A stretch of 59,504 nucleotides of DNA from an uncultured Muribaculaceae bacterium. Its GTDB lineage: Bacteria; Bacillota_I; Bacilli_A; RF39; UBA660. The position numbers and the translations under genes were made by a program. Each line of letters starts with the position of its first letter. Position 1 is the first letter of the stretch. The notes under the pieces are model-generated. The model saw nothing but the letters and a program-made list of their open reading frames with translations, was not told the DNA's origin and made no database searches. This document shows, one piece after another, positions 12,364-58,577 of this stretch. The stretch is from positions 1-59,504 of the forward strand of contig CAZVUK010000002.1 in NCBI GenBank assembly GCA_964630225.1, read 5' to 3'.

Positions 12364-12436
12364 TTTTACTTTTTAGGAATTTTTATTATAATAGTAATAT
12401 GATATAATTTATATATCTATAGAAAGGAGAAAAGTT

Positions 12437-12745: not shown

Positions 12746-12754
12746 GGAGTATAT

Positions 12755-12868: not shown

Positions 12869-12873
12869 TAAAG

Positions 12874-12966: not shown

Positions 12967-12990
12967 AGTTGATTATATCAACTTTTTTGT
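12965..12990 (+). terminator. Rho-independent terminator of the trxA unit
   Basis: 9-bp stem aaagttgat / atcaacttt with loop tat, followed by a T-run. Confidence 0.65.
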
Positions 12991-12998
12991 TGGCAATA

Positions 12999-13007
12999 TG
13001 GTATAAT
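12999..13007 (+). promoter_or_regulatory. Candidate extended -10 (TGgTATAAT) for the 13.0-23.3 kb operon
   Basis: tggtataat sits 27 nt upstream of ATG 13034, directly after the terminator. The -35 is weak. Confidence 0.4.
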
Positions 13008-13033
13008 AAGGGCGAAGAAAAGCGAGGCATAAG

Positions 13034-19428: not shown

Positions 19429-19436
19429 GAGGAAAT

Positions 19437-20426: not shown

Positions 20427-20427
20427 T

Positions 20428-21706: not shown

Positions 21707-21716
21707 GAGGTAAAAT

Positions 21717-22655: not shown

Positions 22656-22658
22656 TAT

Positions 22659-30818: not shown

Positions 30819-32450
30819 ATGTCAAAGATATCGATAATAACATATGATAAAAAGCTTATATTTGATACAGTAAACTTTATCGAAGAAAAAGTTAATTTAA
30901 ATAACACTAATGTTATCGATGTCGAAACTATGTATTTTAGCGATATATATATTGCTAAAAACATGTACACTATGACTAGTTTTTTAAATCTGATTGTTGC
31001 TAAAAAGAATATAAAAGAACTTGTCATAAAGAAAATAAATATAGCTCCACTAGTTCTTAAATTGACAAAAGATATCCCGATACTAAGTAAAGTAACTATC
31101 GAAGAAGATGTAAACATTAACTATGAAACATACGAGGCTTTAACCTTAGCTGAACATCTTAAAGAAGTCGAATGTTTTTCGATGCCTCCGTTTATGTTTG
31201 ATAGTTTAGATCACAAATATAATAAAACCATAAAGCTACGTCAAAAAGAGATGTTCTACAGTCCCTTTATGAAGGTTAATAAATTAGAAAGCTTCGATGA
31301 AATATATTATTGTCGTAAGATAATCATCGCTGAAAAACCAAGTAGCACAGATCTCGAAGACATAGCATCATTTTTTAGAATCAATAATAGAATAAGATTG
31401 ATAGAGTTTCACTATTACGATTACAATCTAGTAACGACTATTATCGCTTATTTGAACAGAAATAATGCTCAAAACGTTTTGATTAAAATTAAACATATTG
31501 AAAATGAGAATGTTATCTCGCTTGTAAATCAGTTAGAAAAAAGCCATGCTCGGTATTTTAAGAACAACAAAGTCAGAATTAAAATTGATTACAAGAATGA
31601 ACACAAAAGCAAATACTTCTTAAAACAGTTTAATCTTAGTTTATTTAGAGCGATACTAATTATTGCAATAGTTATTATTTTACTTTTACTAAGCGTATTT
31701 AATTACAAGGAAAGACAGGATGCCAAAGCTAGCAAAAAAATAGACCAAGTAACTCAAGGAATTGGTGATGAAATGAGTGGTATTCAAGCAGCTATCGATA
31801 GCGAAATGGATGCCCAGGAAGCAATCATGGCCGCTGAAGCTAGTGGTACTGAACTTCCACACGATGCTTCTTATGATATTTATTTTCAAAAACTTGAAAA
31901 AGTTTGGGATAGCTTAATAAGTAAAAACGAAGACACGGTAGGCTGGCTAAAAGTAAATGGCAGTAAAGTTGATTACCCGGTCGTACAGGCCAAAGATAAT
32001 ATCTATTATCTAAACCGCAACTTTTACAAAAAAAGAAATATCTATGGTTGGATATTTATGGATTATCGTAACAAAAAAGCTAAGATGGATCAAAATACTA
32101 TTATATATGGTCATAGAACTAACAACGGCATTATGTTTGGTACACTTAAAAATGTGTTAAAGAAATCGTGGTACACAAATCCTGCTAATCAGGTGATAAG
32201 TTTCAATACGACAGCTGAAACTCATAACTGGAAAATATTTTCTATTTATACAATCGGTGCAACCGATGATTATTTATACAATAATTTTTATAACGATAAT
32301 CAAAGAGTCGATTTTTTCAACAAACTTAGAAATCGCAGTATTCATAACTTTGCAGTCGAAGTCGGAGCTAAAGATAAAATTCTCACTTTGTCTACATGTT
32401 ATGAGGGAGCAGAAAAACGATTAGTCATCCACGCAAAGATGATTGACTGA
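30819..32450 (+). CDS. srtB: Class B sortase fused to a ~270-aa N-terminal cytoplasmic domain of unknown function
   Basis: The C-terminal ~200 aa match SrtB hallmarks: VGWLKVNGSKVDYPVVQAKDN, IFMDYRN, TIIYGHR, ILTLSTC, RLVIHAK. TM at LFRAILIIAIVIILLLLSVF (about aa 273-292). Nothing is recognisable in aa 1-270. Confidence 0.85.
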   Translation: MSKISIITYDKKLIFDTVNFIEEKVNLNNTNVIDVETMYFSDIYIAKNMYTMTSFLNLIVAKKNIKELVIKKINIAPLVLKLTKDIPILSKVTIEEDVNINYETYEALTLAEHLKEVECFSMPPFMFDSLDHKYNKTIKLRQKEMFYSPFMKVNKLESFDEIYYCRKIIIAEKPSSTDLEDIASFFRINNRIRLIEFHYYDYNLVTTIIAYLNRNNAQNVLIKIKHIENENVISLVNQLEKSHARYFKNNKVRIKIDYKNEHKSKYFLKQFNLSLFRAILIIAIVIILLLLSVFNYKERQDAKASKKIDQVTQGIGDEMSGIQAAIDSEMDAQEAIMAAEASGTELPHDASYDIYFQKLEKVWDSLISKNEDTVGWLKVNGSKVDYPVVQAKDNIYYLNRNFYKKRNIYGWIFMDYRNKKAKMDQNTIIYGHRTNNGIMFGTLKNVLKKSWYTNPANQVISFNTTAETHNWKIFSIYTIGATDDYLYNNFYNDNQRVDFFNKLRNRSIHNFAVEVGAKDKILTLSTCYEGAEKRLVIHAKMID

Positions 32451-32454
32451 TAAA

Positions 32455-32482
32455 AAAAGATAGCTTTTAGCTATCTTTTTGT
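32455..32482 (+). terminator. Rho-independent terminator after srtB
   Basis: Stem aagatagc / gctatctt with loop tttta, followed by a T-run. Confidence 0.7.
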
Positions 32483-32527
32483 TGCTCTAATTTAACCAAT
32501 AAGCTAAACTAAAGCCAGGAGGAATTT

Positions 32528-34162
32528 ATGAAAAAAAATCAAAAAAATTGTTCATTTTCAATCAAGTCATTTCTCATTACTGTGGTATTAATGACAGCTT
32601 ATTATTACTTCTTACTACCACCGATGAACTTACATAGTCCAGAGTTTTGGGTGTTTATATCGCTCTTTTTATTCATCTATGGAATATCAGCATCAATATT
32701 TGAAGGAGCGGCCTTGTTTGATGCTAAAAAAACAAAAACTAAAACGCCAGCACCGATGCCGCGCAGTTTTAGAATTGTTTTAGTCATCCCCGCAATCATT
32801 TTGGTGATTATGCTAATCAATTTTATTGCCTCACCAGTATTTAATGCAAAAACTTATTCTAAACGTATTACTATTGACGAAGGAACAGACTTCGCCGAAG
32901 AAGTAGCCGAAGTAGATTTTGCTAAGATACCGCTACTTGATAAGGCGTCAACTAGAAAAGTTGGTGATAGAGTAATGGGGGAGTTACCAGAACTTGTATC
33001 ACAGTTTGATGTATCTAATTTATACACACAGATCAATTATAAAGATACGATTGTCAGAGTTACACCATTAGAATACTCAGATGTCATCAAATACTTTACT
33101 AATCGTAAAGATGGAATCAAAGCATATATAATGGTTGATTCAACTACCGGAAAAAGCAGCCTTGTAAAGCTTGATAAAGGTATGAAATACATGCCTAGTG
33201 CTATATTTGGTGAAGACTTATATCGCAAACTTCGTTTTTCATATCCATTTGATATCTTTGGAGAAATTTCATTCGAAGTAGACGATGAGGGTAATCCATA
33301 CTGGATAATCCCAGTTAAAACCTATACAGCTGTTGGTATGAGAGAAGAAATCAGTAGTTTAATTATCTTTAATCCAGCGGATGGAACAAGTGTTAAACAT
33401 AAAGTTAAAGACGTCCCAACTTGGGTTGATCACGTCTTTACATCGGAACTTGTTTTATCTCAAACTAACGACTGGGGTTCATATCGCGGAGGATATTTTA
33501 ACTCAATTTTCGGTCAAAAGAATGTCGTTAAGACAACCGAAGGATACAATTATGTCGTTATGAATGACGATGTATACTTATACACAGGTATAACATCAGC
33601 TGTTAGAGATGAATCTAATATCGGTTTTATTTTAACTAATCTAAGAACTAAAGAAACACGTTACTATAAGGTTGCTGGTGCTGAAGAGTTCTCGGCTATG
33701 TCTAGTGCCGAAGGGCAAGTGCAACAGATGAAGTATCGCTCTACGTTCCCGCTACTAATTAATTTAAAAGGAAAACCTACCTATTTAATATCATTAAAAG
33801 ATAATGCTGGTCTTGTCAAAATGTATGCTTTCGTCGATGTTCAAAACTATCAAAATGTTACTGTTACTAGTGCTAGTGAAGGAATTGAACAAGCAGCTAC
33901 TAACTACTTAAGTGGTCGCAAAGATACTGTTTCTCCTAGTGAGAACTTAGTTTCTAAAATCACGGTTAAGCAAATAAACTCAGCTTCAAATGACGGAGAA
34001 ACTTCATATTACATTCTAGATAATGAAAATAAAAAGTATAAGGCTCCAATTAAAGCTGGTGAAGCTATTCTTCCATTCTTAAGAAGTGGAGAAGTTATAA
34101 AAATCACTTACTTTGAAGGAGACAAAATAAATACTATTACAAAGGTCGAAGCCAATGATTAG
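32528..34162 (+). CDS. Hypothetical membrane protein with a large extracytoplasmic domain (544 aa)
   Basis: Three N-terminal TM segments followed by about 440 aa of soluble sequence. SD aggagga upstream. No motif recognised. Confidence 0.65.
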   Translation: MKKNQKNCSFSIKSFLITVVLMTAYYYFLLPPMNLHSPEFWVFISLFLFIYGISASIFEGAALFDAKKTKTKTPAPMPRSFRIVLVIPAIILVIMLINFIASPVFNAKTYSKRITIDEGTDFAEEVAEVDFAKIPLLDKASTRKVGDRVMGELPELVSQFDVSNLYTQINYKDTIVRVTPLEYSDVIKYFTNRKDGIKAYIMVDSTTGKSSLVKLDKGMKYMPSAIFGEDLYRKLRFSYPFDIFGEISFEVDDEGNPYWIIPVKTYTAVGMREEISSLIIFNPADGTSVKHKVKDVPTWVDHVFTSELVLSQTNDWGSYRGGYFNSIFGQKNVVKTTEGYNYVVMNDDVYLYTGITSAVRDESNIGFILTNLRTKETRYYKVAGAEEFSAMSSAEGQVQQMKYRSTFPLLINLKGKPTYLISLKDNAGLVKMYAFVDVQNYQNVTVTSASEGIEQAATNYLSGRKDTVSPSENLVSKITVKQINSASNDGETSYYILDNENKKYKAPIKAGEAILPFLRSGEVIKITYFEGDKINTITKVEAND

Positions 34163-41119: not shown

Positions 41120-41185
41120 CTTTATTTCCTTTAAAAATATACTTACTTATGATAATATATTTAGTATAAGGGTAGGAGGCATTAT

Positions 41186-44100
41186 ATGTTTAATAGGAAG
41201 CTCGAAAATGATAAAGGTTTTACCCTAGTAGAAATCATATCGACAGTAATTATACTATCGATAATATTATTAATTGCAGTACCTGCAATTGGAAATTTAC
41301 TAAATGGATTTAGGACAGATTATTATAAGAAATTACAAAAGACTGTTAAAACCAGTGGTCAAGATTATATAAATGATAATCGCCGACTTAGACCTTCAGG
41401 AGTTTTTGAATCCTATGTTATTACAACTAAAGTTTTAGAGACCGATAAAAAAATAGATAAAGTAGTAGACTATCGTAAGAAAGCTTGTTCTAATACAAGC
41501 TATGCGATAGTTATTAAAACGGCAGATAAAAAATATCAATATGAAAGTTGTCTTTCTTGCCCGGAAGATAGTTATACAACGACTCTTAAAGATCGTCCAT
41601 ACTGTCACCCAGCGTGGAAGAACAATGATAATATATCTATAGAATTGTCTACCCCGCCAAAAGATATTTATATTCCTATAAATGCAAATATGGCATACAT
41701 AAGAGAAAAATTAGGAATAAAGAAACAGATTGTTAAAAAAGACAGTAGTGGCAAGATTATTGCTGCTCTTACGGTTGATGATGAAGATGTTATCCTGCCA
41801 GAAAATATCAATGGTTTTGTTGGTACAACAGCTGTTTCAGGACAAGCTATTTATAATTATGGAGGAAAGACGATTCAAACGAATGTTCATATCTTCCAAA
41901 ATGAAGCACCTAAAGTTACGATGACTAACATAAGAAATGGAACTCCTTATACAGCAGGAACCTGGACTTCAGGAGTTAGAGTAATACTGGCAGCCAACGA
42001 TGAATATTTTAATATCTTAAACTTAAAGATTTCAGAATATCAAGTATATGATGTTGCGAAAGGCACTTGGACAAAAATTACTTCTTGTCCAGCGGAATCT
42101 ACTTCTTGTACGATCAACTATAATACGACGATGGTTAGAAATTACCGATATAGGATTATCGTAGCGGGAGGATCGACAAGTAAAATAACGGCAGCTTATA
42201 GCTTCAAAATAGATGCTTCAGTGCCAAATTGTAATATAAACATGATTGATGGAAGTGGCGGTGCATATACAGGTGCTTACATCAACACTAATCAAGTGAC
42301 CATTAGATACTCGGCAGATGATCCGCAGTATGAAGGACTTCCGTTAAGTAGTATGTCTAAAGCAGAACTTTATATCACTAGCTCAAATCCAAATGAACCT
42401 GTTGTTACACAGACACTTACTGCAAACGTTGCACCTTGGCGAACAATTCATACGATAACCGATGAGGGAAGCTACAGCATCATGCTGAAATGCTACGATA
42501 CTGTTGGTAACTATAATACAGCCAGCGCAAACATAAATATTTTACGCGATATATCAGTTAAGTTTTATTCGCCAACTTCGACAACCTTATATGCAACGAC
42601 AACTTATCAATATAATAAAGCCCTTGGAACTCTTCCTACGCCAGCGCGTACTGGACATACTTTCCAAGGATGGTTTACAACGCCAACAACTGGTGGAACG
42701 AAGGCGGTTGCTACGACAGTGCTTACAACAACATCTAATACTTACAGTCTATTTGCTAGATGGACCGCAAATATATATACATTAACATATAATTCAAATG
42801 GTGGAACAACCGTTACTAACCCAACTAGTTATACCTATGGTGTTGGGGTATCATCGTTTACCAACCCAACGAGGACGGGATATCGTTTTGCTGGCTGGCA
42901 TGATGGAACATCGGTTAAAGCTAGTATCACGGCAACCGATCTTGGGAACAAAACTTTAACAGCGCAGTGGACAGCTAACACCTATACCATTGTTTATAAT
43001 GGTGCTGGAAATACGTCAGGTACGATGGCTAATACGAAATGTACTTACAACGCAACTTGTACTCTTCGAGCTAATGCTTTTGTTAGAACGGGAAATAATT
43101 TCATGGGATGGTCTTTAACTAATGGAGGAGTGGTTGCTCACAACAACAGTGCCACCGTTAGTAACTTAAGTTCGACTCATAATGCAACGATCAATCTTTA
43201 TGCTATCTGGAGTCGCAGTAGTTATACAATTACATATAACTTAAACGGCGGAACTAATCCATCTACCAATCCAGGATCATATACATATGGAGATACTATT
43301 ACCTTTGCCAGTCCAACAAGAACAGGATATCGTTTTGATGGATGGTATAAAGAAGCAGCTTTTACAAATAGAGTTACGGGCATTACAGCAACAGGTACCG
43401 GAGCGGTAGTTGTCTATGCTAAATGGCTTGCCAACACTTATTTCATCGATTATGCAGCTAATGGTGCAACTAGTGGTACGATGGCTAGAACAACCTGTAC
43501 TTATGGAACTGGTTGTACCCTTCGAACTAACACTTTTGCTAGAACTGATTATCGTTTTAACAACTGGAGTTCGGGTGGTAAGACTTATGCTGATTTAGCT
43601 AACGTCACAAATCTTACAGCAACCCATAATGGAGTAATAACTATGACTGCTAACTGGGTTCAACGTGTAAATTATATATATCTTCTTCATGGATTTAGTG
43701 GAGGAACCTCCAATCTCTATGGCTTTGGAACCCAATCTATAAATATGAATGCCAATGCACCATATTATTTGGATACAGCGGGTTATGTCGATGCCACAGC
43801 TCAAGCCAATGGGTATAGCTTAGCTACTTATGTATATCCTGCAGCAGGGTGGACTTGGAGTACAAGAACGCTAATTTCTGGTCTGGCGCCAAATAAATAT
43901 AATGGTGTATACTTCACTGCTCCAGAGACACAAGAATATAGAGTAACATCATATATGTTTCCAAATGGAGGAACACGTCTTGGGACTGTAACTTGGTCGG
44001 GAAGCACTCTTTACCAAGATCAAACCTTCCAACAAGGAAGCATTTGGAAGACGGTCGATACCGGAACTAATATTACAGTCCCGGCTGTCGCGGCGGCTAG

Positions 44101-45127
44101 GACGGGTTATAGCTTCACTGGCTGGCTCGGGGAGAATGGAACAATTTACAATGCTAGCAATGTTGTAGGAATGACCGCAGCTTTAGCGGGAACAGACTTA
44201 AACTTTGTCTTTAGAGCACAATGGCTGGGTAATCCTTACACCGTTAGTTTTAATGCTAACGGCGGAACCGGAACAATGGCAGCTCTTAACTGCCGTATTG
44301 GTCAAACCTGTACTCTTCCTGCCGAAGCTTACACTAACAACTGTTATAAATTTGATGGTTGGGCAACAAGTGCCGCTGGTGCTGTTGTTTATAGTGATAG
44401 AGCGACCGTCGCTCTTACCGCAAATGTAACCCTTTATGCGAAATGGAGTGCCAACTATGTTAACAACACAACTACTTGTGCTGCTTGTAGCGTATCCTGT
44501 GGCGGCGGAACACAAACTTGTACCGTCACGAAAAAAGATACGGCAACCGGTGTTGCCTGCCCAGCAAGTTTAAATACCAGTTACTCTCAAGCTTGTAATA
44601 CACAATCGTGCTGTTCGTCAGTAACGACAAGTTATGGTGCATGGGGTGCTTGTAGTGCATCTTGTGGTGGCGGAACGCAAACAAGATCAGTAACGACAAA
44701 AAGTACATATAATGGAGCAACCTGCAGTACTTCGACGCAAAGTCAGGCATGTAACACCCAAACTTGTCTTGTCGAACCTAACGCAACAATATATGCCCAA
44801 CAGTTAACGACATGTGTAAACGGTGTTTACTTTTACACAACACAGGCGCAAAACCCATCGAGATGGATAACAACAGAAATGACAGTACACTGGGTTATAA
44901 GTGGTGCCGTGGTTGCAACCTATTACGGTGATTTAGCAGGAACGAATCCGGGAGGTTTTGGTCCATGGTATGCTTATAATTTTGGAGCACCACCACCTGC
45001 TCCAGCAACGACTAGTGGCTACTATGTAACTAGACATACGGAACTATACTTTAGGTTAAAAGGTAAAATAGCAACGACTGGAGCGGCAATTATTAACCAG
45101 TCAGGATATGGAGGATGTTCAGTATAA
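41186..45127 (+). CDS. Giant (1,313 aa) type IV pilin-like modular surface protein A: prepilin leader, pilin-like head, about 7 Listeria-Bacteroides-type repeats, 2 TSP1-like repeats, C-terminal domain
   Basis: Strong SD gggtaggagg. N-terminus MFNRKLENDKG|FTLVEIISTVIILSIILLIAVP is a class III signal with Glu+5. Seven T(G)Y.F.GW motifs. TSP1-like motifs CSVSCGGGTQTC and WGACSASCGGGTQTR. Confidence 0.85.
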   Translation: MFNRKLENDKGFTLVEIISTVIILSIILLIAVPAIGNLLNGFRTDYYKKLQKTVKTSGQDYINDNRRLRPSGVFESYVITTKVLETDKKIDKVVDYRKKACSNTSYAIVIKTADKKYQYESCLSCPEDSYTTTLKDRPYCHPAWKNNDNISIELSTPPKDIYIPINANMAYIREKLGIKKQIVKKDSSGKIIAALTVDDEDVILPENINGFVGTTAVSGQAIYNYGGKTIQTNVHIFQNEAPKVTMTNIRNGTPYTAGTWTSGVRVILAANDEYFNILNLKISEYQVYDVAKGTWTKITSCPAESTSCTINYNTTMVRNYRYRIIVAGGSTSKITAAYSFKIDASVPNCNINMIDGSGGAYTGAYINTNQVTIRYSADDPQYEGLPLSSMSKAELYITSSNPNEPVVTQTLTANVAPWRTIHTITDEGSYSIMLKCYDTVGNYNTASANINILRDISVKFYSPTSTTLYATTTYQYNKALGTLPTPARTGHTFQGWFTTPTTGGTKAVATTVLTTTSNTYSLFARWTANIYTLTYNSNGGTTVTNPTSYTYGVGVSSFTNPTRTGYRFAGWHDGTSVKASITATDLGNKTLTAQWTANTYTIVYNGAGNTSGTMANTKCTYNATCTLRANAFVRTGNNFMGWSLTNGGVVAHNNSATVSNLSSTHNATINLYAIWSRSSYTITYNLNGGTNPSTNPGSYTYGDTITFASPTRTGYRFDGWYKEAAFTNRVTGITATGTGAVVVYAKWLANTYFIDYAANGATSGTMARTTCTYGTGCTLRTNTFARTDYRFNNWSSGGKTYADLANVTNLTATHNGVITMTANWVQRVNYIYLLHGFSGGTSNLYGFGTQSINMNANAPYYLDTAGYVDATAQANGYSLATYVYPAAGWTWSTRTLISGLAPNKYNGVYFTAPETQEYRVTSYMFPNGGTRLGTVTWSGSTLYQDQTFQQGSIWKTVDTGTNITVPAVAAARTGYSFTGWLGENGTIYNASNVVGMTAALAGTDLNFVFRAQWLGNPYTVSFNANGGTGTMAALNCRIGQTCTLPAEAYTNNCYKFDGWATSAAGAVVYSDRATVALTANVTLYAKWSANYVNNTTTCAACSVSCGGGTQTCTVTKKDTATGVACPASLNTSYSQACNTQSCCSSVTTSYGAWGACSASCGGGTQTRSVTTKSTYNGATCSTSTQSQACNTQTCLVEPNATIYAQQLTTCVNGVYFYTTQAQNPSRWITTEMTVHWVISGAVVATYYGDLAGTNPGGFGPWYAYNFGAPPPAPATTSGYYVTRHTELYFRLKGKIATTGAAIINQSGYGGCSV

Positions 45128-45138
45128 TGAAAAACAAA
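43649..45138 (+). repeat. Copy 1 of a 1,490-bp perfect direct repeat (3' third of giant gene A plus the first 12 nt of the downstream gene)
   Basis: Line-by-line comparison at a constant 6,300-nt offset. Mismatches occur up to 43648/49948, identity runs from gctaactgggtt... through ...agtataatgaaaaacaaa, and the copies diverge at 45139/51439. Confidence 0.9.
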
Positions 45139-45891
45139 AAAATACCAATAATTTTTATAATTATTCTAGGTTTAATCTTAATAGGAGTAGGAGTCTTCTT
45201 TCTAAAAGATTCCAAAATTACTAAACCTAATACAAAAACAGAAAGTCAGAAGGTCGAAGCAGCTTTAAAACTATTGATCGATGATCTATTAACTAAAGAT
45301 GCTTCACCCGAAGCTTTCAATACTAAATACAATGTCGATTATTTCAGCGACGCATATTTACCGTTTGCTGAGAAAACAATTGTTACTTATAAAGCAAAAA
45401 TTTCCTCACCAGATACTGAACAACAGGCATGTCTAGCTTTTGTTGATGTCAACTACAATGATTTAATCAAAGCCTACAAAAAGGCCTTAGATTACAAAGT
45501 ATCGATTGATGAAACAAAGAAAGAAGCATCCTTAACGATCAAAGTCTATCAACTTCGTCATTATCACAATGTTTTAACCAAAGTTAGCGATTTAATAATG
45601 GCAGATATTGAAGATAAGTCGGCTCTTGGTGAAGAAGTGTTTTTCGCTAATAGGTGTCTAGCTTTAAAAGCAATGAATAAAAACACGGATGAGTTTAACA
45701 AAGGTGAGAACTTAAACGTCAAAGTAAATTATAAATTTGATGGTGATAAATTTATCCTTGAAGATTATAGTTTATTAGGAAACGCTCTTTCAGGAATGAC
45801 TTATATTATGCAACTTGGAGGAAACGATGAGATTGAAGCAGTTATGAAACCGTTGGCAGAAAAGATTTACAAAGATGTTCAAAAAAATTGA
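45127..45891 (+). CDS. Bitopic membrane protein, accessory family 1 (copy a)
   Basis: TAATG overlap with giant gene A. MKNKKIPIIFIIILGLILIGVGVFF TM, then a soluble domain of about 225 aa. Paralog of 45875-46651 (shared ...DYK(V/I)(S/D)ID..., ...RC(L/Q)A(L/I)KAM(N/D)K...). Confidence 0.7.
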   Translation: MKNKKIPIIFIIILGLILIGVGVFFLKDSKITKPNTKTESQKVEAALKLLIDDLLTKDASPEAFNTKYNVDYFSDAYLPFAEKTIVTYKAKISSPDTEQQACLAFVDVNYNDLIKAYKKALDYKVSIDETKKEASLTIKVYQLRHYHNVLTKVSDLIMADIEDKSALGEEVFFANRCLALKAMNKNTDEFNKGENLNVKVNYKFDGDKFILEDYSLLGNALSGMTYIMQLGGNDEIEAVMKPLAEKIYKDVQKN

Positions 45892-46651
45892 TAAACAAAA
45901 AGTATTAATTATTCTTATTGCTATTATATTAGTCATAGGGATATTAGAATTCAGTAAAAGCTTTAAGTCTAAAACAACTAATTCATACGACAAAAACTTA
46001 ATTAAAGATGAAGTTATCAATCTAATAAAAGATATGACTGCTAAAGATGTAGTAATCGAAGACTTTAAATTAAAGTATAATTATTATGAATTCTCAAATG
46101 AATTTAATAGCGATAGTTTTCCTTTTAGTAACAAAAACATCTTAGCTTATATACCAGAATCAGCTATCGCTAATTCGAAAACTAGAGAGTGCATCGAAAT
46201 AGCCCACAACAGTTATCAAAAGATATATGATATGTATATTGATAATCTTGATTACAAAATCGATATCGATAGTGATAATAATTTAATAGATATCAAACTA
46301 AAAAATTTTTATCTGATTAGATATCACTATATTTTGACTCTTGTTACTGATATGTACAAGGGAGAAAGCAACGTCAAATTAAATGAAAATGAATTCTTTG
46401 GATATCGCTGTCAAGCAATAAAAGCTATGGACAAAGAACTTGATAACTTTAAAAATAAAGCTACTTACGTCAGAGTAAAATTAAAGTTTGAACTCGATGA
46501 TGAAAGAATTAAAATAGCTAATACTGATACATTAGGTTATTATCTTACAGCTAGAAACTACATAGATACTTCTAATGACACATCGATGGCTAAAGGAACT
46601 GAAAAAATCAAAGAAGAAGCTAAACGCTACTTTGAAAAAGCTCAAAAATAA
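45875..46651 (+). CDS. Bitopic membrane protein, accessory family 1 (copy b)
   Basis: Overlaps the previous gene by 17 nt. MFKKIDKQKVLIILIAIILVIGILEF TM. Same length (258 aa) and colinear similarity to copy a. Confidence 0.7.
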   Translation: MFKKIDKQKVLIILIAIILVIGILEFSKSFKSKTTNSYDKNLIKDEVINLIKDMTAKDVVIEDFKLKYNYYEFSNEFNSDSFPFSNKNILAYIPESAIANSKTRECIEIAHNSYQKIYDMYIDNLDYKIDIDSDNNLIDIKLKNFYLIRYHYILTLVTDMYKGESNVKLNENEFFGYRCQAIKAMDKELDNFKNKATYVRVKLKFELDDERIKIANTDTLGYYLTARNYIDTSNDTSMAKGTEKIKEEAKRYFEKAQK

Positions 46652-46696
46652 ACTTTAATTTGATTTGTATATGTTATAATATTCATAGGAGGATAT

Positions 46697-47407
46697 ATGA
46701 AAAATAAAAAGATTCAAGTATTGATTTATATTTTATTGATCGTAGTTGCAATAATTATTTTAGTTTTTGCTTTACCTAAGCTGTTCAGTAATAAGAAAGC
46801 TGACAAAGCAGGCGAAAAACCAGCAGAACAAAAATATAAAATAGTAAAACAATCTAAATCAGATAAAATAATTTATGATTATAAGAAATTTAAAACAGAG
46901 TTTATCAAAGTTGGTTTTGAAGAGACGAGTTGTAATGATGATGTAATAAGCGGTTTAGATCCACTTATATGTCATGCAAAGCGTAATGTTTTTGCCGAAA
47001 AAGAAATAGATGACATCCTATCATTAACCTTTAATGGGGAAGTGGTAGAAACTATGAGTGTCAATTTAAAATACGATGGCGATGACTTTAAAACTAAAAC
47101 ATTAGTCAAAGATGCTAATAACATCGTAAATAACTTAATTGATTATAAAGTTGATGATGCTATCATCAAAGATTTACTTGAAAAAATAACTAAGACCCCT
47201 ACTGAGCTTGGTGTATCAACCCATAAAGACAGTAAAGATTATAGAGTATTTTATAATATGAAATTTGTCGAAGGAAATGAAATAAATCCAAGATACTTCG
47301 ACCTAAGTATAATCTTTTATCAAAAGTCGACGATAATTGACTTAGAAACACCTGTTACTGAAGCAGAAAAAGAAACGGAATCAAGTAAATCAATTATGGA
47401 GAGATAG
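46697..47407 (+). CDS. Bitopic membrane protein, accessory family 2 (copy a)
   Basis: SD taggagga. TM VLIYILLIVVAIIILVFAL. Paralog of 51427-52029 (YDYKKFKTEFIKVGFEETSCNDDVISGL vs YPYNKFKTELIKIGFVQAKCNDDKVSGM). Confidence 0.7.
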   Translation: MKNKKIQVLIYILLIVVAIIILVFALPKLFSNKKADKAGEKPAEQKYKIVKQSKSDKIIYDYKKFKTEFIKVGFEETSCNDDVISGLDPLICHAKRNVFAEKEIDDILSLTFNGEVVETMSVNLKYDGDDFKTKTLVKDANNIVNNLIDYKVDDAIIKDLLEKITKTPTELGVSTHKDSKDYRVFYNMKFVEGNEINPRYFDLSIIFYQKSTIIDLETPVTEAEKETESSKSIMER

Positions 47408-47431
47408 AAAAAGTGCTATTGCACTTTTTTT
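47408..47431 (+). terminator. Rho-independent terminator between the two giant-gene units
   Basis: Stem aaagtgc / gcacttt with loop tatt, followed by a T-run. Confidence 0.7.
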
Positions 47432-47441
47432 GTTGATTTCA

Positions 47442-47470
47442 ATTTACTTTTCAAATACTTATGATATAAT
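47442..47470 (+). promoter_or_regulatory. Candidate promoter of giant gene B (extended -10 TGaTATAAT)
   Basis: tgatataat at 47462-47470, with tttact about 16 nt upstream. A similar acttatgataat box precedes giant gene A (about 41143-41156). Confidence 0.4.
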
Positions 47471-47497
47471 TTATTTAATAATATAATAGGTAAGAGT

Positions 47498-50400
47498 ATG
47501 AAAAAGATTAATAATAATGTCAAGGGCTTCACACTTATAGAAATAATATCGACAGTTATCATTTTGTCGATAATTTTATTGATAGCAATACCAACTTTTA
47601 GTAGAATTTTGGCAGGATTTAGAAAAGATTACTACAGTAAATTACAAGATACTGTTCAAAAAGTAGGTAAAGACTATATAAATGATAATAGGCGTCTTAG
47701 ACCAGTTGGAGTATTTCAGACAAGGATTATTAAAGTACCTGTTTTAGTTCAGGCTAAAAAGATGGATGCTCTAATTGATTACAAAAAGAAACCTTGTTCA
47801 ACGGATAGTTATATAGTTGCAGTTAAAACAGCTGATAAAAAATTTGAATATACGAGCTGTTTAACTTGTTCGGAAGATCAGTATCAAACCGATGTAAATG
47901 ATTATAAATATTGTCATCCTGCGTGGCTTACTAACGATAATATATTTGTTGAAATGTCGCCACCTCCGGCAGATATATACATACCACTTAATGCAAGTAT
48001 CGATTACATAAAAAGTAAATTAGGTATTACTAAAAGTATCGTTAAAAAAGATAGTACAGGTAAAATAATAGCTTCATTACCGGTTGATGATAAAGATATT
48101 ATCTATCCTAATAATATAAATTCATTTATTGGGACAACTGCTCAAGATGGAGTAGCTTTCTATCAGTATGGAAGTCAAACCATTCAAACCAATGTTCATA
48201 TTTATCAAAACTCAGCACCTAAGTTAAGTTTTGTTAATGTTAAGAATGGAACTGATTATGTACCGGGTACTTGGTCTTCGGCAGTTAGACTTACGATCGA
48301 AGCAAATGACCAGTATTTTGGAATATTAAATCTAACTATTAAAGAATATCAATATATGGACGAAAGTGGCGTATGGAAAAAGATTGATAATTGTACGGCC
48401 GGTTTAAAGTCTTGTACTTTCACATATAATGAAACAATGAATTCATCGATGAAGTTTAGAATTATCAATAACGGAGATGCAGCTAGTAAAGAGACGTCTT
48501 TCTATAGTGTCAGAGTTGATGCTTCGACTCCAAACTGTTATATGAGCATGCTCGATGCAAGTGGTGCTGCCTACAGTGGTAATTACATCAACACTTCATC
48601 AATAAGAGTTAATTATAAAGCCGATGATCCGCAGTATGCAGGTTTACCTGCTAGTAGCATTCAAAATGTTGAACTATATATAAATGGAGTACTTACTGAT
48701 ACACATAATCTAAATGGAACAAACGTCTATACATGGACGACAATTAAAACCATTACTAATGAAGGATCCTACAGCGCGATGCTAAAGTGTTACGATACCG
48801 TAGGAAACTTTAGTACGGCAAATGGAACAATTAATATTTTAAGAGATATCGATGTTCAGTTCTATTCACCATCTTCAACGACGCTATTCCAAACACTTTC
48901 ATATCAATATAACAAAGCCATGGCAAGTCTTCCAACTCCAAGTAGAACGGGATATACTTTTAATGGCTGGTTTGATACTCCGGCATCAGCGGGAACGCAG
49001 TATCTTGCTACAACCGTTTTGGATACGACAATAGAACCACTTAAGTTGTTCTCGAGATGGACAGCTAATATCTACAATATATCTTATGTATATAATGGAG
49101 GAACAACTGTCTCTAACCCAAGTAGCTATGTTTTTGCTACCGGTGTTGCTGGTTTTGCAAGCCCAAGTAGAACCGGATACATATTCGGTGGATGGTATAA
49201 AGAAGCATCACTAGTTACGAGAGTTACTAGCATATCGACAACTGATTATGGAAACTATACACTCTATGCCAAGTGGACCCCAATTACTTATACGATGACT
49301 TATAATGCTAATGGTGGTGCAGGTACGATGGCAAGTACCGTCTGTACTTATGATACAGTTTGTACTTTGAGAACTAATACTTTCACCAAAACGGGAACGA
49401 GCTTTATCGGCTGGGCAAACAGCACTACAGGAGCGGTTGTCTATGCCAATGGTGATACCATTAACAACTTGACGACAACTAACGGAGCAAGTTTTACCCT
49501 CTATGCAAAATGGCAAAATAATACTTACGGAATAACATACAGTTTAGGCGGAGGAACTCATAGTGGAAATCCGACCTTCTATACATATGGAACAGGAACA
49601 GCTAGTTTTGCCAATGCGAGCAGAACCGGATATATATTCGGTGGATGGTATAGCGACTCAGCACTAACTGTTAGAGTGACAAGTATTTCTACGACCGCAA
49701 CAGGCGATATTACCCTCTATGCAAAATGGACCGCTATTACTTACACTATAGCTTATGCTGCAAATGGTGGAAGTGGCGCAATGTCCAATACAACTTGTAC
49801 TTATGGTGTAGGCTGTGTGCTAAGATCTAACGCCTTTACGCAAACTGGATATCGTTTTACCCTATGGTCATACGGCGGAAGTAATTACAATGACGGAGCA
49901 ACCGTAACTAATTTAACAACAACTAATGGAGCTGTTTTAACATTTACAGCTAACTGGGTTCAACGTGTAAATTATATATATCTTCTTCATGGATTTAGTG
50001 GAGGAACCTCCAATCTCTATGGCTTTGGAACCCAATCTATAAATATGAATGCCAATGCACCATATTATTTGGATACAGCGGGTTATGTCGATGCCACAGC
50101 TCAAGCCAATGGGTATAGCTTAGCTACTTATGTATATCCTGCAGCAGGGTGGACTTGGAGTACAAGAACGCTAATTTCTGGTCTGGCGCCAAATAAATAT
50201 AATGGTGTATACTTCACTGCTCCAGAGACACAAGAATATAGAGTAACATCATATATGTTTCCAAATGGAGGAACACGTCTTGGGACTGTAACTTGGTCGG
50301 GAAGCACTCTTTACCAAGATCAAACCTTCCAACAAGGAAGCATTTGGAAGACGGTCGATACCGGAACTAATATTACAGTCCCGGCTGTCGCGGCGGCTAG

Positions 50401-51427
50401 GACGGGTTATAGCTTCACTGGCTGGCTCGGGGAGAATGGAACAATTTACAATGCTAGCAATGTTGTAGGAATGACCGCAGCTTTAGCGGGAACAGACTTA
50501 AACTTTGTCTTTAGAGCACAATGGCTGGGTAATCCTTACACCGTTAGTTTTAATGCTAACGGCGGAACCGGAACAATGGCAGCTCTTAACTGCCGTATTG
50601 GTCAAACCTGTACTCTTCCTGCCGAAGCTTACACTAACAACTGTTATAAATTTGATGGTTGGGCAACAAGTGCCGCTGGTGCTGTTGTTTATAGTGATAG
50701 AGCGACCGTCGCTCTTACCGCAAATGTAACCCTTTATGCGAAATGGAGTGCCAACTATGTTAACAACACAACTACTTGTGCTGCTTGTAGCGTATCCTGT
50801 GGCGGCGGAACACAAACTTGTACCGTCACGAAAAAAGATACGGCAACCGGTGTTGCCTGCCCAGCAAGTTTAAATACCAGTTACTCTCAAGCTTGTAATA
50901 CACAATCGTGCTGTTCGTCAGTAACGACAAGTTATGGTGCATGGGGTGCTTGTAGTGCATCTTGTGGTGGCGGAACGCAAACAAGATCAGTAACGACAAA
51001 AAGTACATATAATGGAGCAACCTGCAGTACTTCGACGCAAAGTCAGGCATGTAACACCCAAACTTGTCTTGTCGAACCTAACGCAACAATATATGCCCAA
51101 CAGTTAACGACATGTGTAAACGGTGTTTACTTTTACACAACACAGGCGCAAAACCCATCGAGATGGATAACAACAGAAATGACAGTACACTGGGTTATAA
51201 GTGGTGCCGTGGTTGCAACCTATTACGGTGATTTAGCAGGAACGAATCCGGGAGGTTTTGGTCCATGGTATGCTTATAATTTTGGAGCACCACCACCTGC
51301 TCCAGCAACGACTAGTGGCTACTATGTAACTAGACATACGGAACTATACTTTAGGTTAAAAGGTAAAATAGCAACGACTGGAGCGGCAATTATTAACCAG
51401 TCAGGATATGGAGGATGTTCAGTATAA
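47498..51427 (+). CDS. Giant (1,309 aa) type IV pilin-like modular surface protein B (paralog of A)
   Basis: N-terminus MKKINNNVKG|FTLIEIISTVIILSIILLIAIP. Same domain order as A. The first ~820 aa are diverged from A (roughly half to two-thirds identical by eye). The last ~490 aa are identical. Confidence 0.85.
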   Translation: MKKINNNVKGFTLIEIISTVIILSIILLIAIPTFSRILAGFRKDYYSKLQDTVQKVGKDYINDNRRLRPVGVFQTRIIKVPVLVQAKKMDALIDYKKKPCSTDSYIVAVKTADKKFEYTSCLTCSEDQYQTDVNDYKYCHPAWLTNDNIFVEMSPPPADIYIPLNASIDYIKSKLGITKSIVKKDSTGKIIASLPVDDKDIIYPNNINSFIGTTAQDGVAFYQYGSQTIQTNVHIYQNSAPKLSFVNVKNGTDYVPGTWSSAVRLTIEANDQYFGILNLTIKEYQYMDESGVWKKIDNCTAGLKSCTFTYNETMNSSMKFRIINNGDAASKETSFYSVRVDASTPNCYMSMLDASGAAYSGNYINTSSIRVNYKADDPQYAGLPASSIQNVELYINGVLTDTHNLNGTNVYTWTTIKTITNEGSYSAMLKCYDTVGNFSTANGTINILRDIDVQFYSPSSTTLFQTLSYQYNKAMASLPTPSRTGYTFNGWFDTPASAGTQYLATTVLDTTIEPLKLFSRWTANIYNISYVYNGGTTVSNPSSYVFATGVAGFASPSRTGYIFGGWYKEASLVTRVTSISTTDYGNYTLYAKWTPITYTMTYNANGGAGTMASTVCTYDTVCTLRTNTFTKTGTSFIGWANSTTGAVVYANGDTINNLTTTNGASFTLYAKWQNNTYGITYSLGGGTHSGNPTFYTYGTGTASFANASRTGYIFGGWYSDSALTVRVTSISTTATGDITLYAKWTAITYTIAYAANGGSGAMSNTTCTYGVGCVLRSNAFTQTGYRFTLWSYGGSNYNDGATVTNLTTTNGAVLTFTANWVQRVNYIYLLHGFSGGTSNLYGFGTQSINMNANAPYYLDTAGYVDATAQANGYSLATYVYPAAGWTWSTRTLISGLAPNKYNGVYFTAPETQEYRVTSYMFPNGGTRLGTVTWSGSTLYQDQTFQQGSIWKTVDTGTNITVPAVAAARTGYSFTGWLGENGTIYNASNVVGMTAALAGTDLNFVFRAQWLGNPYTVSFNANGGTGTMAALNCRIGQTCTLPAEAYTNNCYKFDGWATSAAGAVVYSDRATVALTANVTLYAKWSANYVNNTTTCAACSVSCGGGTQTCTVTKKDTATGVACPASLNTSYSQACNTQSCCSSVTTSYGAWGACSASCGGGTQTRSVTTKSTYNGATCSTSTQSQACNTQTCLVEPNATIYAQQLTTCVNGVYFYTTQAQNPSRWITTEMTVHWVISGAVVATYYGDLAGTNPGGFGPWYAYNFGAPPPAPATTSGYYVTRHTELYFRLKGKIATTGAAIINQSGYGGCSV

Positions 51428-51438
51428 TGAAAAACAAA
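49949..51438 (+). repeat. Copy 2 of the 1,490-bp perfect direct repeat
   Basis: See copy 1. The identical antisense ORFs in the track (44198-44515 = 50498-50815; 44526-44750 = 50826-51050) corroborate it. Confidence 0.9.
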
Positions 51439-52029
51439 TATTATTTATTAATAAGCATAATAGTTATCGCGTTAATTACTGGAATCGTAATACTCTTAAT
51501 TAGGATTCCAATCAATAAAGAGGGAACATATAAAACGCTTAAACAAAGTCAGGAAACTAAAACGATAATTTATCCCTATAATAAGTTTAAAACAGAACTG
51601 ATCAAGATCGGTTTTGTGCAAGCTAAATGTAATGACGACAAAGTAAGTGGTATGGAAAACATTGTCTGTGCCGCTACCAAAGATAACAATGTACTTCAAA
51701 ATGTCGATTCGCTTAACTTCACTTATAATGGCGATGTTATAGAAACTTTAATTCTAAAACTAAATTATGAATCATTTGATTCTAAAACAGTAAAAAGAGA
51801 CATAAAAGCAATTATTAATAATTTCATCGTCTTAAATTTAGAAGAAAAAACAGTCGCTCAGCTAAAAGAAAAATTAGATCGTAAGAACACTGTTCATGGT
51901 TCAACAACATCCTTAGTTGTCGGAGATTATTACACTCATTATAATCTCAAAGAACATGAAAGTGAAAATGATAATTATTATAGCGTTTCAGTAACAATGT
52001 ATTTAAAAGCAACTCCAACTGTAGAATAA
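51427..52029 (+). CDS. Bitopic membrane protein, accessory family 2 (copy b)
   Basis: TAATG overlap with giant gene B. TM YYLLISIIVIALITGIVILLI. Paralog of 46697-47407. Confidence 0.7.
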   Translation: MKNKYYLLISIIVIALITGIVILLIRIPINKEGTYKTLKQSQETKTIIYPYNKFKTELIKIGFVQAKCNDDKVSGMENIVCAATKDNNVLQNVDSLNFTYNGDVIETLILKLNYESFDSKTVKRDIKAIINNFIVLNLEEKTVAQLKEKLDRKNTVHGSTTSLVVGDYYTHYNLKEHESENDNYYSVSVTMYLKATPTVE

Positions 52030-52049
52030 AAGGCAAGTAATTGCCTTTT
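52029..52049 (+). terminator. Rho-independent terminator ending the giant-gene locus
   Basis: 8-bp stem aaaggcaa / ttgccttt with loop gtaa, followed by a short T-run. Confidence 0.65.
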
Positions 52050-52063
52050 CTCTTTGTCAAACA

Positions 52064-52092
52064 TTGACTTTTTCCTTCATTTATAGTATAAT
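52064..52092 (+). promoter_or_regulatory. Near-consensus sigma-A promoter
   Basis: TTGACT (52064-52069), a 17-nt spacer, then TATAAT (52087-52092). Followed by ggagg and ATG 52114. Confidence 0.6.
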
Positions 52093-52113: not shown

Positions 52114-52569
52114 ATGTTAAGAAATATTAAAATATATTCCCAAATAGTCTTAAAATCTAACTTCAATCTTCGTATCTATAAAATTTCGCTAGTTCATTTA
52201 GGTGATAAAAAATATACTAAAGGAAGATTAATTCCGCTTAGAACGATCAGTAAAAACGCTAGACCAGTATTAGTTAAAAAGTTATCATTTGAAAACAAAG
52301 AATTGGATAAATTCAAGAGAATAGATAAATATAATGACTGCTTTGTCTTTGTTAAAAACGAAAAAAAGGGGCAAAGTACCTTAGGTATTGATATTGTTAA
52401 AAAAAGCAATCATAGTCTTGATCTAAGTGATTCTTTAATTAAAAGAAATGCAAGACAAGAGTTGATCCATATGAATTTTGATGATAGGAAATCGATCACC
52501 AGTAAAAATATAATGCTTGTAAGTAGCAAGTTCAAATATGAGTTTATGAATAATTATACTAGTTTTTAA
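52114..52569 (+). CDS. Hypothetical basic protein (151 aa)
   Basis: Has its own strong promoter and SD. K/R-rich, no TM, no recognisable motif. Confidence 0.5.
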   Translation: MLRNIKIYSQIVLKSNFNLRIYKISLVHLGDKKYTKGRLIPLRTISKNARPVLVKKLSFENKELDKFKRIDKYNDCFVFVKNEKKGQSTLGIDIVKKSNHSLDLSDSLIKRNARQELIHMNFDDRKSITSKNIMLVSSKFKYEFMNNYTSF

Positions 52570-56480: not shown

Positions 56481-58577
56481 ATGGATGGTTTAGAGCCAAT
56501 GACAGGGATACCGTCATATGAAAGTGGTCCGGTTCGAATAACAGAAGCGGATTTTGATCGTGTGTATCAGCCGAAGGGTGTAACGCCTAATATGGCAGCA
56601 ATGACTAGTAAGACTTATAGAGGTTTTAGAGGTTTTGTGCAAAATTTAAGATCTGATTTACATAGAGGTAAAGTAGATAAGAAGATCAAAGAATACAACA
56701 CTAAACTAAGAGAGATTGAGACCTATTCAAATCGCGTTGAATCGCGGCTTGCAGAAGGTAAATCTTCTAATTTATTGGCGATTAAACTTAGAGTTAGAAA
56801 AGCTGAAAAAGCCGGTAAAGAGCTTGCAAAACTAGGTGTTAAAATCTTTGCTTTAGAAAATAAACAAGCTAAACTTGAAGGTAAACCAAAAGCTATTAAA
56901 GTACCTTCGGAAGTAGTAGATAAATCTATTATACTTTCTGCGATAGGGTTGATGAAACTCCTCGATCGTAGACAAGAGAAGAAAATTATTCGTGAAGAAG
57001 TAAGTAAAATTATGAAAGAAGTTCAGAAGGGTGAAACCGGTGACTTCGAATCATTGCAAAAAGAAAATTTAGCTGATTTCGTCATCCAAAAGATGAAGGA
57101 AAAAGGCATAGATAGAGAAATGGAAGCAGCAGAGCGTGCTTCTATAGAACAGTTGGGTGGAGAAGCAGTTATTAACTTCCGTGGGGAATTTGTAAATGCT
57201 ATCAACGAAGGAAATCTATCTCCAGAAGATGAAGCTAGATTCCGCAAGTTCTGTGCTGACAACGGACTAGACTTTAGTAAAGAGTTAAAACTTGCATATG
57301 ATACGGATATGGCTCTAGGTGGGCACGATGGACCAGCTATAAGCTCTCAAGCAGAAATGCCACCAGTCGCAGCTTTTGATATAAAAGAGGCAATAAGGAA
57401 TGATTGGGGAACACAAATTCCAGATTTTACTAAAACAGCAGGAACTCCACCAGTGCAAGAAGAAGCGGCGTTTGACTTACAAAAATATTTAAAAGAAAAT
57501 AGAGCAGAATTAATAAGCGAATTTAACAAGTTTTTAGAACAAAGAAAGACAAACACAGAGCCTCAAAGTGAATTAGCAAAAGCTCTTCAAGAAAAGATAA
57601 AAGCTGATGCAGCTCTTCAAGCGTACAGATTCTCTGGTGAAAACAACCCAGAGCGCGAAGCAGAGCTTTTAGCAGCAGTAGAACGTAGTAAAGCAAAAAT
57701 AAGCAGCATTACAGAGGAAACAGTAATCAAAGCTGATGATGTAATTAATAGACAGAGTGAAGCGGTTGTTCAAGAGCAAGCCCAAGTAGATCCGGAAGAA
57801 GCAAGCCCGAGAATAACAATCGAACCCGTAGTAGAACAAGTTGAAAAAGAACCAATAGCACCAATTAGAATACCAAGTATCGAAATAGATGATAATTATA
57901 ATCCTATTATTGATAGTTACAGTATGGCTGATATCATTGCTGAAATATTACCAGATGCGGATATCAGAAATGAAAAAGGTAAAATTGATGCCGATAAAAT
58001 TCTAACTGTTCAAAGAACAAGAAGACTAGAACTCGATAATTTCTTAGTGGATCACCCGGAATATGAGGATAGATTCGCACAGCTACAAATACTTGATACA
58101 ATTAGAAATAAAGATGGATCATTAAGTAAAACCAAACTTAAATTAAATCCAGAAATAATCGATAAACTGACCGAGATTAATCAACGTCAAACTGCACGTC
58201 ACGAGCAGTACTTAGCAAACGAAAGAGCAAAATTTGAAGAAGGACGCCAAGGCATTATTGAAAAAAACAGAGAACGTTCAGAAGCGCTTAGACAATCAAT
58301 TGCAGCACGTAAAAATCGTGAGATGTTCTATAAAGTAGGATCTGACTATTCATCAGTATCAGATAAAGATTTAAATGAATTAGTTACTACTCTTTCACCA
58401 ACAGCTGTTTCGGCTTTTGAAGAAAGAGGACGTTACTTCGATGAAGTAGCAGCAGAGATACCTATGAGTCAATTTAGAGATGATAAAGACCGTTGGTACT
58501 CACATGTCGTATCACTTTCGAAAGCACGATATGAAGAAGCCAAAACAGTAAGCCAAGAAGAAAGTAGAACAAGATAA
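56481..58577 (+). CDS. Hypothetical large acidic, coiled-coil-rich protein (698 aa)
   Basis: SD aaggagg. Long uninterrupted ORF with no TM and no recognisable catalytic motif. Confidence 0.6.
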   Translation: MDGLEPMTGIPSYESGPVRITEADFDRVYQPKGVTPNMAAMTSKTYRGFRGFVQNLRSDLHRGKVDKKIKEYNTKLREIETYSNRVESRLAEGKSSNLLAIKLRVRKAEKAGKELAKLGVKIFALENKQAKLEGKPKAIKVPSEVVDKSIILSAIGLMKLLDRRQEKKIIREEVSKIMKEVQKGETGDFESLQKENLADFVIQKMKEKGIDREMEAAERASIEQLGGEAVINFRGEFVNAINEGNLSPEDEARFRKFCADNGLDFSKELKLAYDTDMALGGHDGPAISSQAEMPPVAAFDIKEAIRNDWGTQIPDFTKTAGTPPVQEEAAFDLQKYLKENRAELISEFNKFLEQRKTNTEPQSELAKALQEKIKADAALQAYRFSGENNPEREAELLAAVERSKAKISSITEETVIKADDVINRQSEAVVQEQAQVDPEEASPRITIEPVVEQVEKEPIAPIRIPSIEIDDNYNPIIDSYSMADIIAEILPDADIRNEKGKIDADKILTVQRTRRLELDNFLVDHPEYEDRFAQLQILDTIRNKDGSLSKTKLKLNPEIIDKLTEINQRQTARHEQYLANERAKFEEGRQGIIEKNRERSEALRQSIAARKNREMFYKVGSDYSSVSDKDLNELVTTLSPTAVSAFEERGRYFDEVAAEIPMSQFRDDKDRWYSHVVSLSKARYEEAKTVSQEESRTR

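Follow-up and report, generated by a model that had tools for sequence, protein, structure and literature searches.

We analysed the whole 59,504-nucleotide (nt) contig CAZVUK010000002.1 (hereafter the window) of GenBank assembly GCA_964630225.1, a metagenome-type assembly of an uncultured Muribaculaceae bacterium placed by GTDB in the RF39 lineage UBA660. Two giant genes, A and B, lie there in tandem and encode paralogous type IV pilin-like proteins, which are strongly diverged over their 5' parts and identical, base for base, over their 3' ends. The identical block extends beyond both stop codons into two different downstream genes, X1 and Y'. The principal features, in window coordinates as used throughout, are as follows:

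41186–45127, + strand: gene A, giant modular type IV pilin-like protein of 1313 amino acids (aa), supported by the open reading frame (ORF) and by Pfam, TIGR02532 and PDB matches
43649–45138, + strand: identical block, copy 1 (codons 822–1313 of A, the stop codon and the first four codons, MKNK, of X1; 0 mismatches)
47498–51427, + strand: gene B, paralogue of A, 1309 aa, same architecture (first 817 codons 58% aa identical to A)
49949–51438, + strand: identical block, copy 2 (codons 818–1309 of B, the stop codon and the first four codons, MKNK, of Y')

Direct sequence comparison gave 0 mismatches over the 1,490 nt of the two copies, which stand at an offset of 6,300, and the exact run cannot be extended by even one base on either side. 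Nucleotide identity is 53–61% in the 30–200 nt preceding the block (about 58% just upstream) and 38–48% (about 47%) in the 30–200 nt past it. Over the whole stretch upstream of the block (821 codons of A, 817 of B), the two genes are 58% identical in aa and ~65% in nt, with non-synonymous (dN) and synonymous (dS) divergence of 0.35 and 1.47 (the latter saturated), versus dN = dS = 0 within the block. Since 1,490 identical bases adjoin sequence of 58% identity, chance is ruled out, and dS = 0 likewise rules out purifying selection as the source of the identity.

Both edges are sharp and well placed. The 5' edge of the block coincides with the first base of a codon (822 in A, 818 in B) and with a domain boundary, the canonical end motif (…T-A-N-W) of a Flg_new repeat. 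The TAA stop lies inside (45125–45127 and 51425–51427) and overlaps the downstream ATG by one base (TAATG); the block ends after the MKNK codons of X1 (behind A) and Y' (behind B), at the point where the relatedness of X1 and Y' stops. A repeat scan of the window found no further copy of the block and 0 inverted repeat pairs. The initial annotation, made from the letters alone, had reported the equality of the two intervals, the divergence of the preceding sequence (5' parts 50–70% identical in aa) and the passage of the identity through the stop, the overlapping ATG and the MKNK codons of two different genes to an abrupt end. All of this held on direct comparison, and two of the checks it had proposed, an alignment to fix the breakpoints and a comparison of synonymous divergence along the pair, gave exact edges at 43649/49949 and 45138/51438 and the contrast in dS cited above.

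Gene A begins with the leader MFNRKLENDKG followed by FTLVE; the pilin module extends to about aa 140, and an unknown domain (aa 141–454) and five Flg_new (Listeria-Bacteroides) repeats (aa 455–824) lead to the shared tail. A class III prepilin signal consists of a short hydrophilic leader ending in Gly, a hydrophobic stretch of ~20 aa and Glu at +5 (GFxxxE), and both proteins carry one: A reads ...NDKG followed by FTLVEIISTVIILSIILLIA, B ...NVKG followed by FTLIEII.... Pfam N_methyl scores 22.1 and 23.5 against a cut-off of 21.2, and TIGR02532 (NCBIfam) 22.4 against 16.3. Residues 4–65 show weak sequence matches to the alpha-1 chains of geopilin, PilE1 and MshA in PDB (E = 8e-4 to 0.2), and the pilin module of A has homologues among other pilin-like multi-domain proteins from metagenomes. 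A modular pilin is defined by an N-terminal IPR012902/N_methyl motif plus at least one extra domain that is not pilus-specific (Raynaud et al. 2021, PMC8179133); in A and B, N_methyl is joined by 6–7 Flg_new repeats and TSP1 (Pfam). The two products are thus probably giant modular pilin-like surface proteins in which a pilin carrier bears a repeat stalk and, distally, a binding module, and they might be displayed on a pilus. Neither a prepilin peptidase nor type IV filament machinery was found within the 59.5-kb window.

Two observations concern these proteins more generally. The G+C content of the two genes (41186–45127 and 47498–51427) is 38–40%, against about 28–35% in the surrounding genome, for which a Thr/Gly/Ala/Asn-rich composition or a different origin are candidate causes. 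Many metagenomic proteins (P0132, P0156, P0158, P0181, P0183 and P0235 among them) join the prepilin N_methyl motif with TSP1, and one such cluster has 124 members; pilin-like proteins with thrombospondin repeats look like a sizeable uncharacterised class.

The shared tail, which follows the last of the diverged repeats, contains four parts (coordinates of copy 1):

43658–44050, + strand: orphan domain D1 (about aa 825–955, ~130 aa; 66–74% aa identity in the sister-species orthologue)
44051–44446, + strand: two Flg_new/Flg_new_2 repeats (about aa 956–1087; Flg_new_2 at 1018–1090; end motifs FRAQW and LYAKW in the translation)
44468–44767, + strand: two TSP1 repeats (about aa 1095–1194; Pfam TSP_1 and TSP1_ADAMTS above cut-offs, TSP1_spondin below)
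44768–45124, + strand: orphan C-terminal domain of 119 aa (aa 1195–1313; the only full-length match is its own protein)

The initial annotation had described this module as two repeats, two TSP1 repeats and a terminal domain, which is correct as far as it goes; the additional ~130-aa domain ahead of the repeats had been overlooked. As to the two TSP1 repeats, one is recognised outright by Pfam, and the second is recovered through PDB matches to thrombospondin-1 that span both; chains of thrombospondin-1 and properdin match module residues 275–378. Database searches returned little else. Neither A nor B nor the 492-aa tail had an exact match in protein look-ups, and homology searches with the whole proteins and the tail were dominated by Flg_new and TSP1 repeat matches and yielded no close relative. 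Against GTDB species representatives the tail gave only remote TSP1/Flg_new matches, in candidate-phyla and other bacteria, and scans of JGI metagenomes (by N-terminal protein alignment and with a 28-nt exact pattern from the block) gave no matches. Among the proteins retrieved, D1 has no homologue other than the sister-species orthologue and the C-terminal domain has no relative; against 1.84 billion representative proteins the sole full-length match of the latter was the window's own protein, and no family was assigned. An AlphaFold2 single-sequence model of the tail reached a local confidence (pLDDT) of 30 and a predicted template-modelling score (pTM) of 0.22, values too low for the model to be of use.

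The reality of two copies deserves special attention, as a repeat of this length is an assembly hazard, a warning already given in the initial annotation. We retrieved contigs of conspecific strains (99.7–99.96% nt identity) from short-read assemblies of several independent runs, through exact-protein look-ups of neighbouring genes; all of these assemblies break at the block. Four contigs coming from the side of the rubrerythrin gene (L010–L013) end at 43678, 30 nt into the block. Two others (L022 and L023) cover exactly 45109–49978 (4,870 nt), i.e., the inter-copy segment with 30 nt of block at both ends; they begin with the last 30 nt of the block and end with its first 30 nt. A further two (L029 and L030) start at 51409, so that they include the last 30 nt of copy 2. 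Run SRR8925755 contains all three unique edges; SRR8925743 has two of them (L013 and L023). The 30-nt overlap is what is expected at a repeat node of a de Bruijn assembly with k = 31, which we take to be the value used for the Logan assemblies. As the inter-copy contig leaves the block and re-enters it, any genome with that contig must hold the block at least twice, and the linear order of the window is the only path that uses each edge once. Both copies are thus placed in one genome by the topology of the assembly graph, with two entries and two exits, in independent runs.

That the second tail is an artefact, with either a single tail in the genome or two clearly different tails collapsed and written twice, is in our view very improbable. 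The suspicion draws on the nature of the window, which is an entire contig of a metagenome-type assembly, and on the fact that none of the retrieved independent assemblies spans the block or recovers its interior. Three of the runs (SRR8925715, SRR8925716 and SRR8925755) derive from biogas-plant digestate of project PRJNA533495 (PMC7842101), and the remaining SRR89257xx and SRR89258xx runs fall within the accession range of samples of that project. The project behind several runs used 2×150-bp reads with 350-bp inserts (PMC7842101), which cannot bridge 1.49 kb. Against the artefact, the 4,870-nt contigs L022 and L023 carry block ends on both sides, and other contigs lead from the N-terminal part of A into the block and out of it into Y', with all edges in SRR8925755, so that a double traversal is needed wherever the inter-copy segment is present. 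Moreover, tails that differed strongly would stay separate at k = 31; single-nucleotide polymorphisms, if few, could be hidden in this way, but real divergence could not. The concern about an assembly duplication is therefore largely answered by independent assemblies that break exactly at the edges and flank the inter-copy segment with block on both sides.

Strain diversity at the locus is 0.07–0.3%, and the copies in the window show 0 differences in 1,490 nt; had they evolved independently since the common ancestor of the strains, a few differences would be expected. The inter-copy contig starts 16 nt earlier and carries 45123 T>C in three runs of another study, and in single runs it ends 6 or 36 nt later (implied variant positions 49954 and 49984). 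These shifted contig ends point to copy- or strain-specific variants, lying only 6–36 nt inside the edges.

The age of the paralogues can be read from a sister species (contig CAYZRY010000008.1 of GCA_964481005.1; SRR35836907) represented by two assemblies, L017 (GCA_964481005.1) and L018, whose flanks are about 77% nt identical to the window. Behind the same rubrerythrin gene, both carry an orthologue of A, the first ~820 codons of which are 73–78% identical in aa to A and 56% to B. For the N-terminal part of L017, dN is 0.16 against A and 0.35 against B, and quartet site patterns of 16:3:0 favour the pairing of A with L017. Since L017 is orthologous to A and not to B, the split between A and B predates that speciation, by which time their synonymous sites were already approaching saturation. 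A recent duplication of the whole gene is ruled out by this orthology and by the dS of ~1.5 upstream of the block. Inside the tract the order is reversed: within the genome, A and B have tails with 100% identity, which share 60–74% aa identity with the matching part of L017, whereas outside it A and L017 share 73–78% and A and B 57% aa identity, the comparison being with the A orthologue only. On these alignments, the pattern of tail identity is the signature of concerted evolution.

The orthologue in the sister species (L017:10648–14286; L018:10648–13842) has at least three extra near-identical Flg_new repeats (GWATSAAGAVAY...) where the window has TSP1. Both contigs end inside those repeats, so that either the 3' architecture differs between the species or the assembly is incomplete there.

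Since the paralogues split before the speciation and their tails are identical, only a recent non-reciprocal transfer explains the tail. We therefore favour, with a probability of roughly 0.7, a recent non-reciprocal exchange (interlocus gene conversion or segment replacement) between tandem, anciently diverged adhesin paralogues as the origin of the shared tail. Recombination or gene conversion that homogenised the C-terminal module had been the main proposal of the initial annotation, and every test that was run agrees with it. Under this scenario, one paralogue would have had 1,490 nt overwritten by the sequence of the other, at a time that is recent on the scale of strain divergence; the transferred stretch would take in the distal module in full and run on through the stop codon to the fourth codon of the downstream gene. 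Its 5' junction would have fallen on the Flg_new end motif (T-A-N-W) and its 3' junction where homology of the operons ceases. The identical block would then have become a substrate for RecA-type recombination and been kept homogeneous, except for a few tens of bases at its edges. The edge-proximal variants in other strains, though few, are consistent with such edge erosion. Flg_new motifs, which recur across repeats and paralogues, may have provided the microhomology for the founding event; alternatively, the 5' edge may lie where it does as junctions at domain borders yield functional chimeras. Two observations weakly favour B, or an outside allele, as the donor, with A receiving the tract: the intermediate dN between block and L017 (0.27), and the Flg_new repeats that L017 has in place of TSP1 past the second repeat.

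Several points weigh against gene conversion as drawn here. Graph assemblers pop small bubbles and write the consensus twice, so that the 0 mismatches may be partly by construction; the perfect identity may accordingly owe something to repeat collapse, and exact look-ups did not recover the block interior from any other strain's assembly. From the sister species, neither the B orthologue nor the 3' end of A was recovered in GTDB, JGI and gene-cluster searches, the contigs ending inside A; clusters of the downstream genes contained conspecific strains only. As regards the donor, the same dN of 0.27 lies between the orthologous (0.16) and the paralogous (0.35) values. Finally, the present flanks, at 53–60% identity, are too diverged and lack the long homology needed for RecA-mediated initiation, and the founding event may have been illegitimate or microhomology-mediated.

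The segments between and behind the two giant genes contain small membrane-anchored proteins and putative expression signals:

about 41148–41158, + strand: -10-like element of A, tatgataatat, plus the ribosome-binding site (RBS) ggaggc, behind the rubrerythrin gene (consensus match only)
45127–45891, + strand: X1, small N-terminally membrane-anchored protein, whose start overlaps the stop of A (TAATG); paralogue of X2 (32% aa)
45875–46651, + strand: X2, small N-terminally membrane-anchored paralogue of X1 (32% aa)
46697–47407, + strand: Y, small membrane-anchored protein, paralogue of Y' (36% aa), with a terminator-like hairpin at 47403–47434 behind it
47443–47470, + strand: promoter-like site of B, TTTACT-16-TATAAT with upstream TG, downstream of the terminator of Y (consensus match only)
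51427–52029, + strand: Y', small membrane-anchored protein, whose start overlaps the stop of B, with a terminator-like hairpin at 52028–52049 behind it

X1, X2, Y and Y' matched no Pfam or NCBIfam family. Independent transcription of A and B is the best explanation for this layout, in which each gene appears to have its own upstream terminator, promoter-like site or -10-like element, and RBS. Behind Y' and a strong promoter-like site (52064–52092) lies a 151-aa ORF without family (52114–52569), the product of which is called at only 88 aa in some conspecific strains; it may not be a genuine or intact gene.

The arrangement of the locus also admits a more dynamic origin. A circular or incoming DNA of 6.3 kb, consisting of the block, X1-X2-Y and the N-terminal part of B, could have entered by a single crossover in a resident block, reversibly. 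A perfect direct repeat around a 4.8-kb segment is what Campbell-type integration produces, here with a period of 6,300 nt, and the topology of the assembly graph fits such a loop equally well. Set against this are the antiquity that the tandem appears to have (Y and Y' are old paralogues with 36% aa identity, and the N-terminal parts of A and B share 58%) and the lack of any integrase, replication or mobile-element gene in or beside the segment. A wider origin from a mobile element, phage or plasmid was rejected on similar grounds: no such genes are present, and the flanks are housekeeping genes that are syntenic in three lineages. Tandem pairs with a small membrane-protein gene are, furthermore, the norm of the family in distant lineages, as seen in the scaffolds L032 and L033 described next, and we consider the insertion improbable.

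The distant relative L032 (ENA ERZ28614682 scaffold_5480; 37% aa identity in the pilin module) carries a tandem giant pilin-like pair (8981–15116) separated by a small MKNK… membrane protein. The two genes share an exact block of 1,952 nt (gene nt 82–2033), subject to the same assembly caveat as in the window; this block spans the pilin module, the unknown domain and the initial Flg_new repeats. The two genes have unrelated promoters and unrelated C-terminal tips, and the right block edge lies in the Flg_new start motif FNANGGS. The polarity of the block (N-terminal end) is thus opposite to that in the window (C-terminal end). In the third tandem pair, L033, the genes are diverged throughout and share no block. 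Block sharing between tandem paralogues therefore appears, from these comparisons, to recur in the family without being universal.

It is conceivable, though unlikely, that tandem giant modular-pilin genes of anaerobic Bacillota-like bacteria form a module-shuffling locus, where blocks of 1.5–2 kb are swapped between expressed paralogues at Flg_new junctions and direct repeats allow reversible loss or amplification of the unit. If this were true, the tip module would have been exchanged in the window and the carrier and stalk in L032, and a population could hold combinatorial stalk/tip adhesins without a dedicated recombinase. We also doubt that the variation is programmed, with tandem expressed pilin genes exchanging modules at Flg_new junctions and/or losing and regaining the unit through the 1.5-kb direct repeat so as to vary the combination of adhesins. 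Two unrelated lineages with sharp-edged exact blocks at opposite gene ends and edges on Flg_new motifs would suit such a system, as would the slight edge shifts among strains and the surface adhesin type of the proteins. On the other hand, the window has no silent cassettes, site-specific recombinase or inverted repeats (0 inverted pairs), both genes are complete with a promoter-like site, the L033 pair lacks a shared block, and conspecific strains from three studies keep the arrangement, with edges within 36 nt. The initial annotation had named as its alternative a cassette-like exchange of variable N-terminal parts with a fixed C-terminal module; as a programmed system this is not supported, given the promoter-like site, RBS and terminator found at both genes, and in the looser form of module shuffling it finds some support in L032.

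The closest analogues of recent gene conversion between A and B are babA/babB and homA/homB of Helicobacter pylori, in which intragenomic gene conversion keeps the 3' segments uniform and the 5' and middle parts diverge (Pride & Blaser 2002, via PMC2795765). These too are paralogous adhesins in one genome, with identity within the genome exceeding that between orthologues. The differences are that babA/babB and homA/homB encode diderm outer-membrane proteins at dispersed loci, whereas A and B form a tandem pilin-like pair in a monoderm-type genome; that the conserved 3' part is there a membrane anchor and here a distal, presumably ligand-binding module; and that conversion was demonstrated experimentally in H. 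pylori, whereas for A and B it is deduced from sequence. Interlocus conversion between surface-associated paralogues is also described for PE/PPE and other repeat families of Mycobacterium tuberculosis, where short reads reveal it poorly and long reads resolve it (PMC12046097, PMC13061034); the protein family and the organism are different.

With respect to protein design, modular pilins have functional modules grafted onto a pilin carrier, presumably for display on type IV filaments; more than 1,200 of them in 264 architectures, some multi-repeat, have been reported (Raynaud et al., PMC8179133). PilB (vWA module) and PilC (lectin module) of Streptococcus sanguinis are modular type IV pilins (PMC8179133, PMC9934059). 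A and B fit the definition, with weak sequence matches to the alpha-1 helices of solved pilins; at ~1,300 aa they are larger than the 860-aa extreme cited for modular pilins (PMC8179133). Where PilB and PilC carry a vWA and a lectin module, A and B carry Flg_new and TSP1 repeats together with two orphan domains.

A Neisseria-type cassette system was considered and ruled out, since neither gene is truncated and each has a start codon, an RBS, a promoter-like site and a terminator ahead of it. In Neisseria, promoterless silent pilS cassettes donate variable C-terminal segments to a single expressed gene, pilE, with a constant N-terminus. Non-reciprocal recombination between pilin gene copies and mosaic genes are common to both situations; unlike pilE/pilS, A and B are both complete with promoter-like sites and have the C-terminus in common, and the window contains no silent copy.

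The remainder of the window contains housekeeping genes, including those for ABC-F, RmuC, rubrerythrin, AsnRS and NrdDG, together with a sortase, a YutD-like protein and DUF1292. The last three, NrdDG and rubrerythrin, along with a GC content of 32%, point in general terms to an anaerobic Bacillota-like bacterium. A second paralogous cluster occupies 17750–23309: two Peptidase_C39_2 proteins (17750–18808 and 19437–20426) share a 94-nt stretch of 79% identity, each gene is followed by one for a small paralogous protein (18805–19428 and 20395–21051), and a third, more distant small paralogue (22659–23309) lies behind a CHAP-domain protein (21717–22655). In the region 30819–34162, a 544-aa ORF without recognised family (32528–34162) adjoins a 543-aa protein with a C-terminal sortase domain as its sole match. 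A 698-aa ORF without recognised family is located at 56481–58577, and two tRNA genes at the very end of the contig (59332–59490).

Overall, the finding adds an uncharacterised protein family to the cases of a known evolutionary process and involves no new mechanism. In practice, short-read assemblies of this species always break at the block, and contigs of metagenome-assembled genomes should be treated with care here. It is a well-bounded case of concerted evolution limited to one module of a surface-protein pair, in an uncultured lineage of anaerobic digesters, and it flags a family of very large pilin-like proteins with TSP1 repeats and two orphan domains. The presence of an identical distal module on two different stalks suggests that modules, and not whole genes, are the units on which selection or recombination acts.

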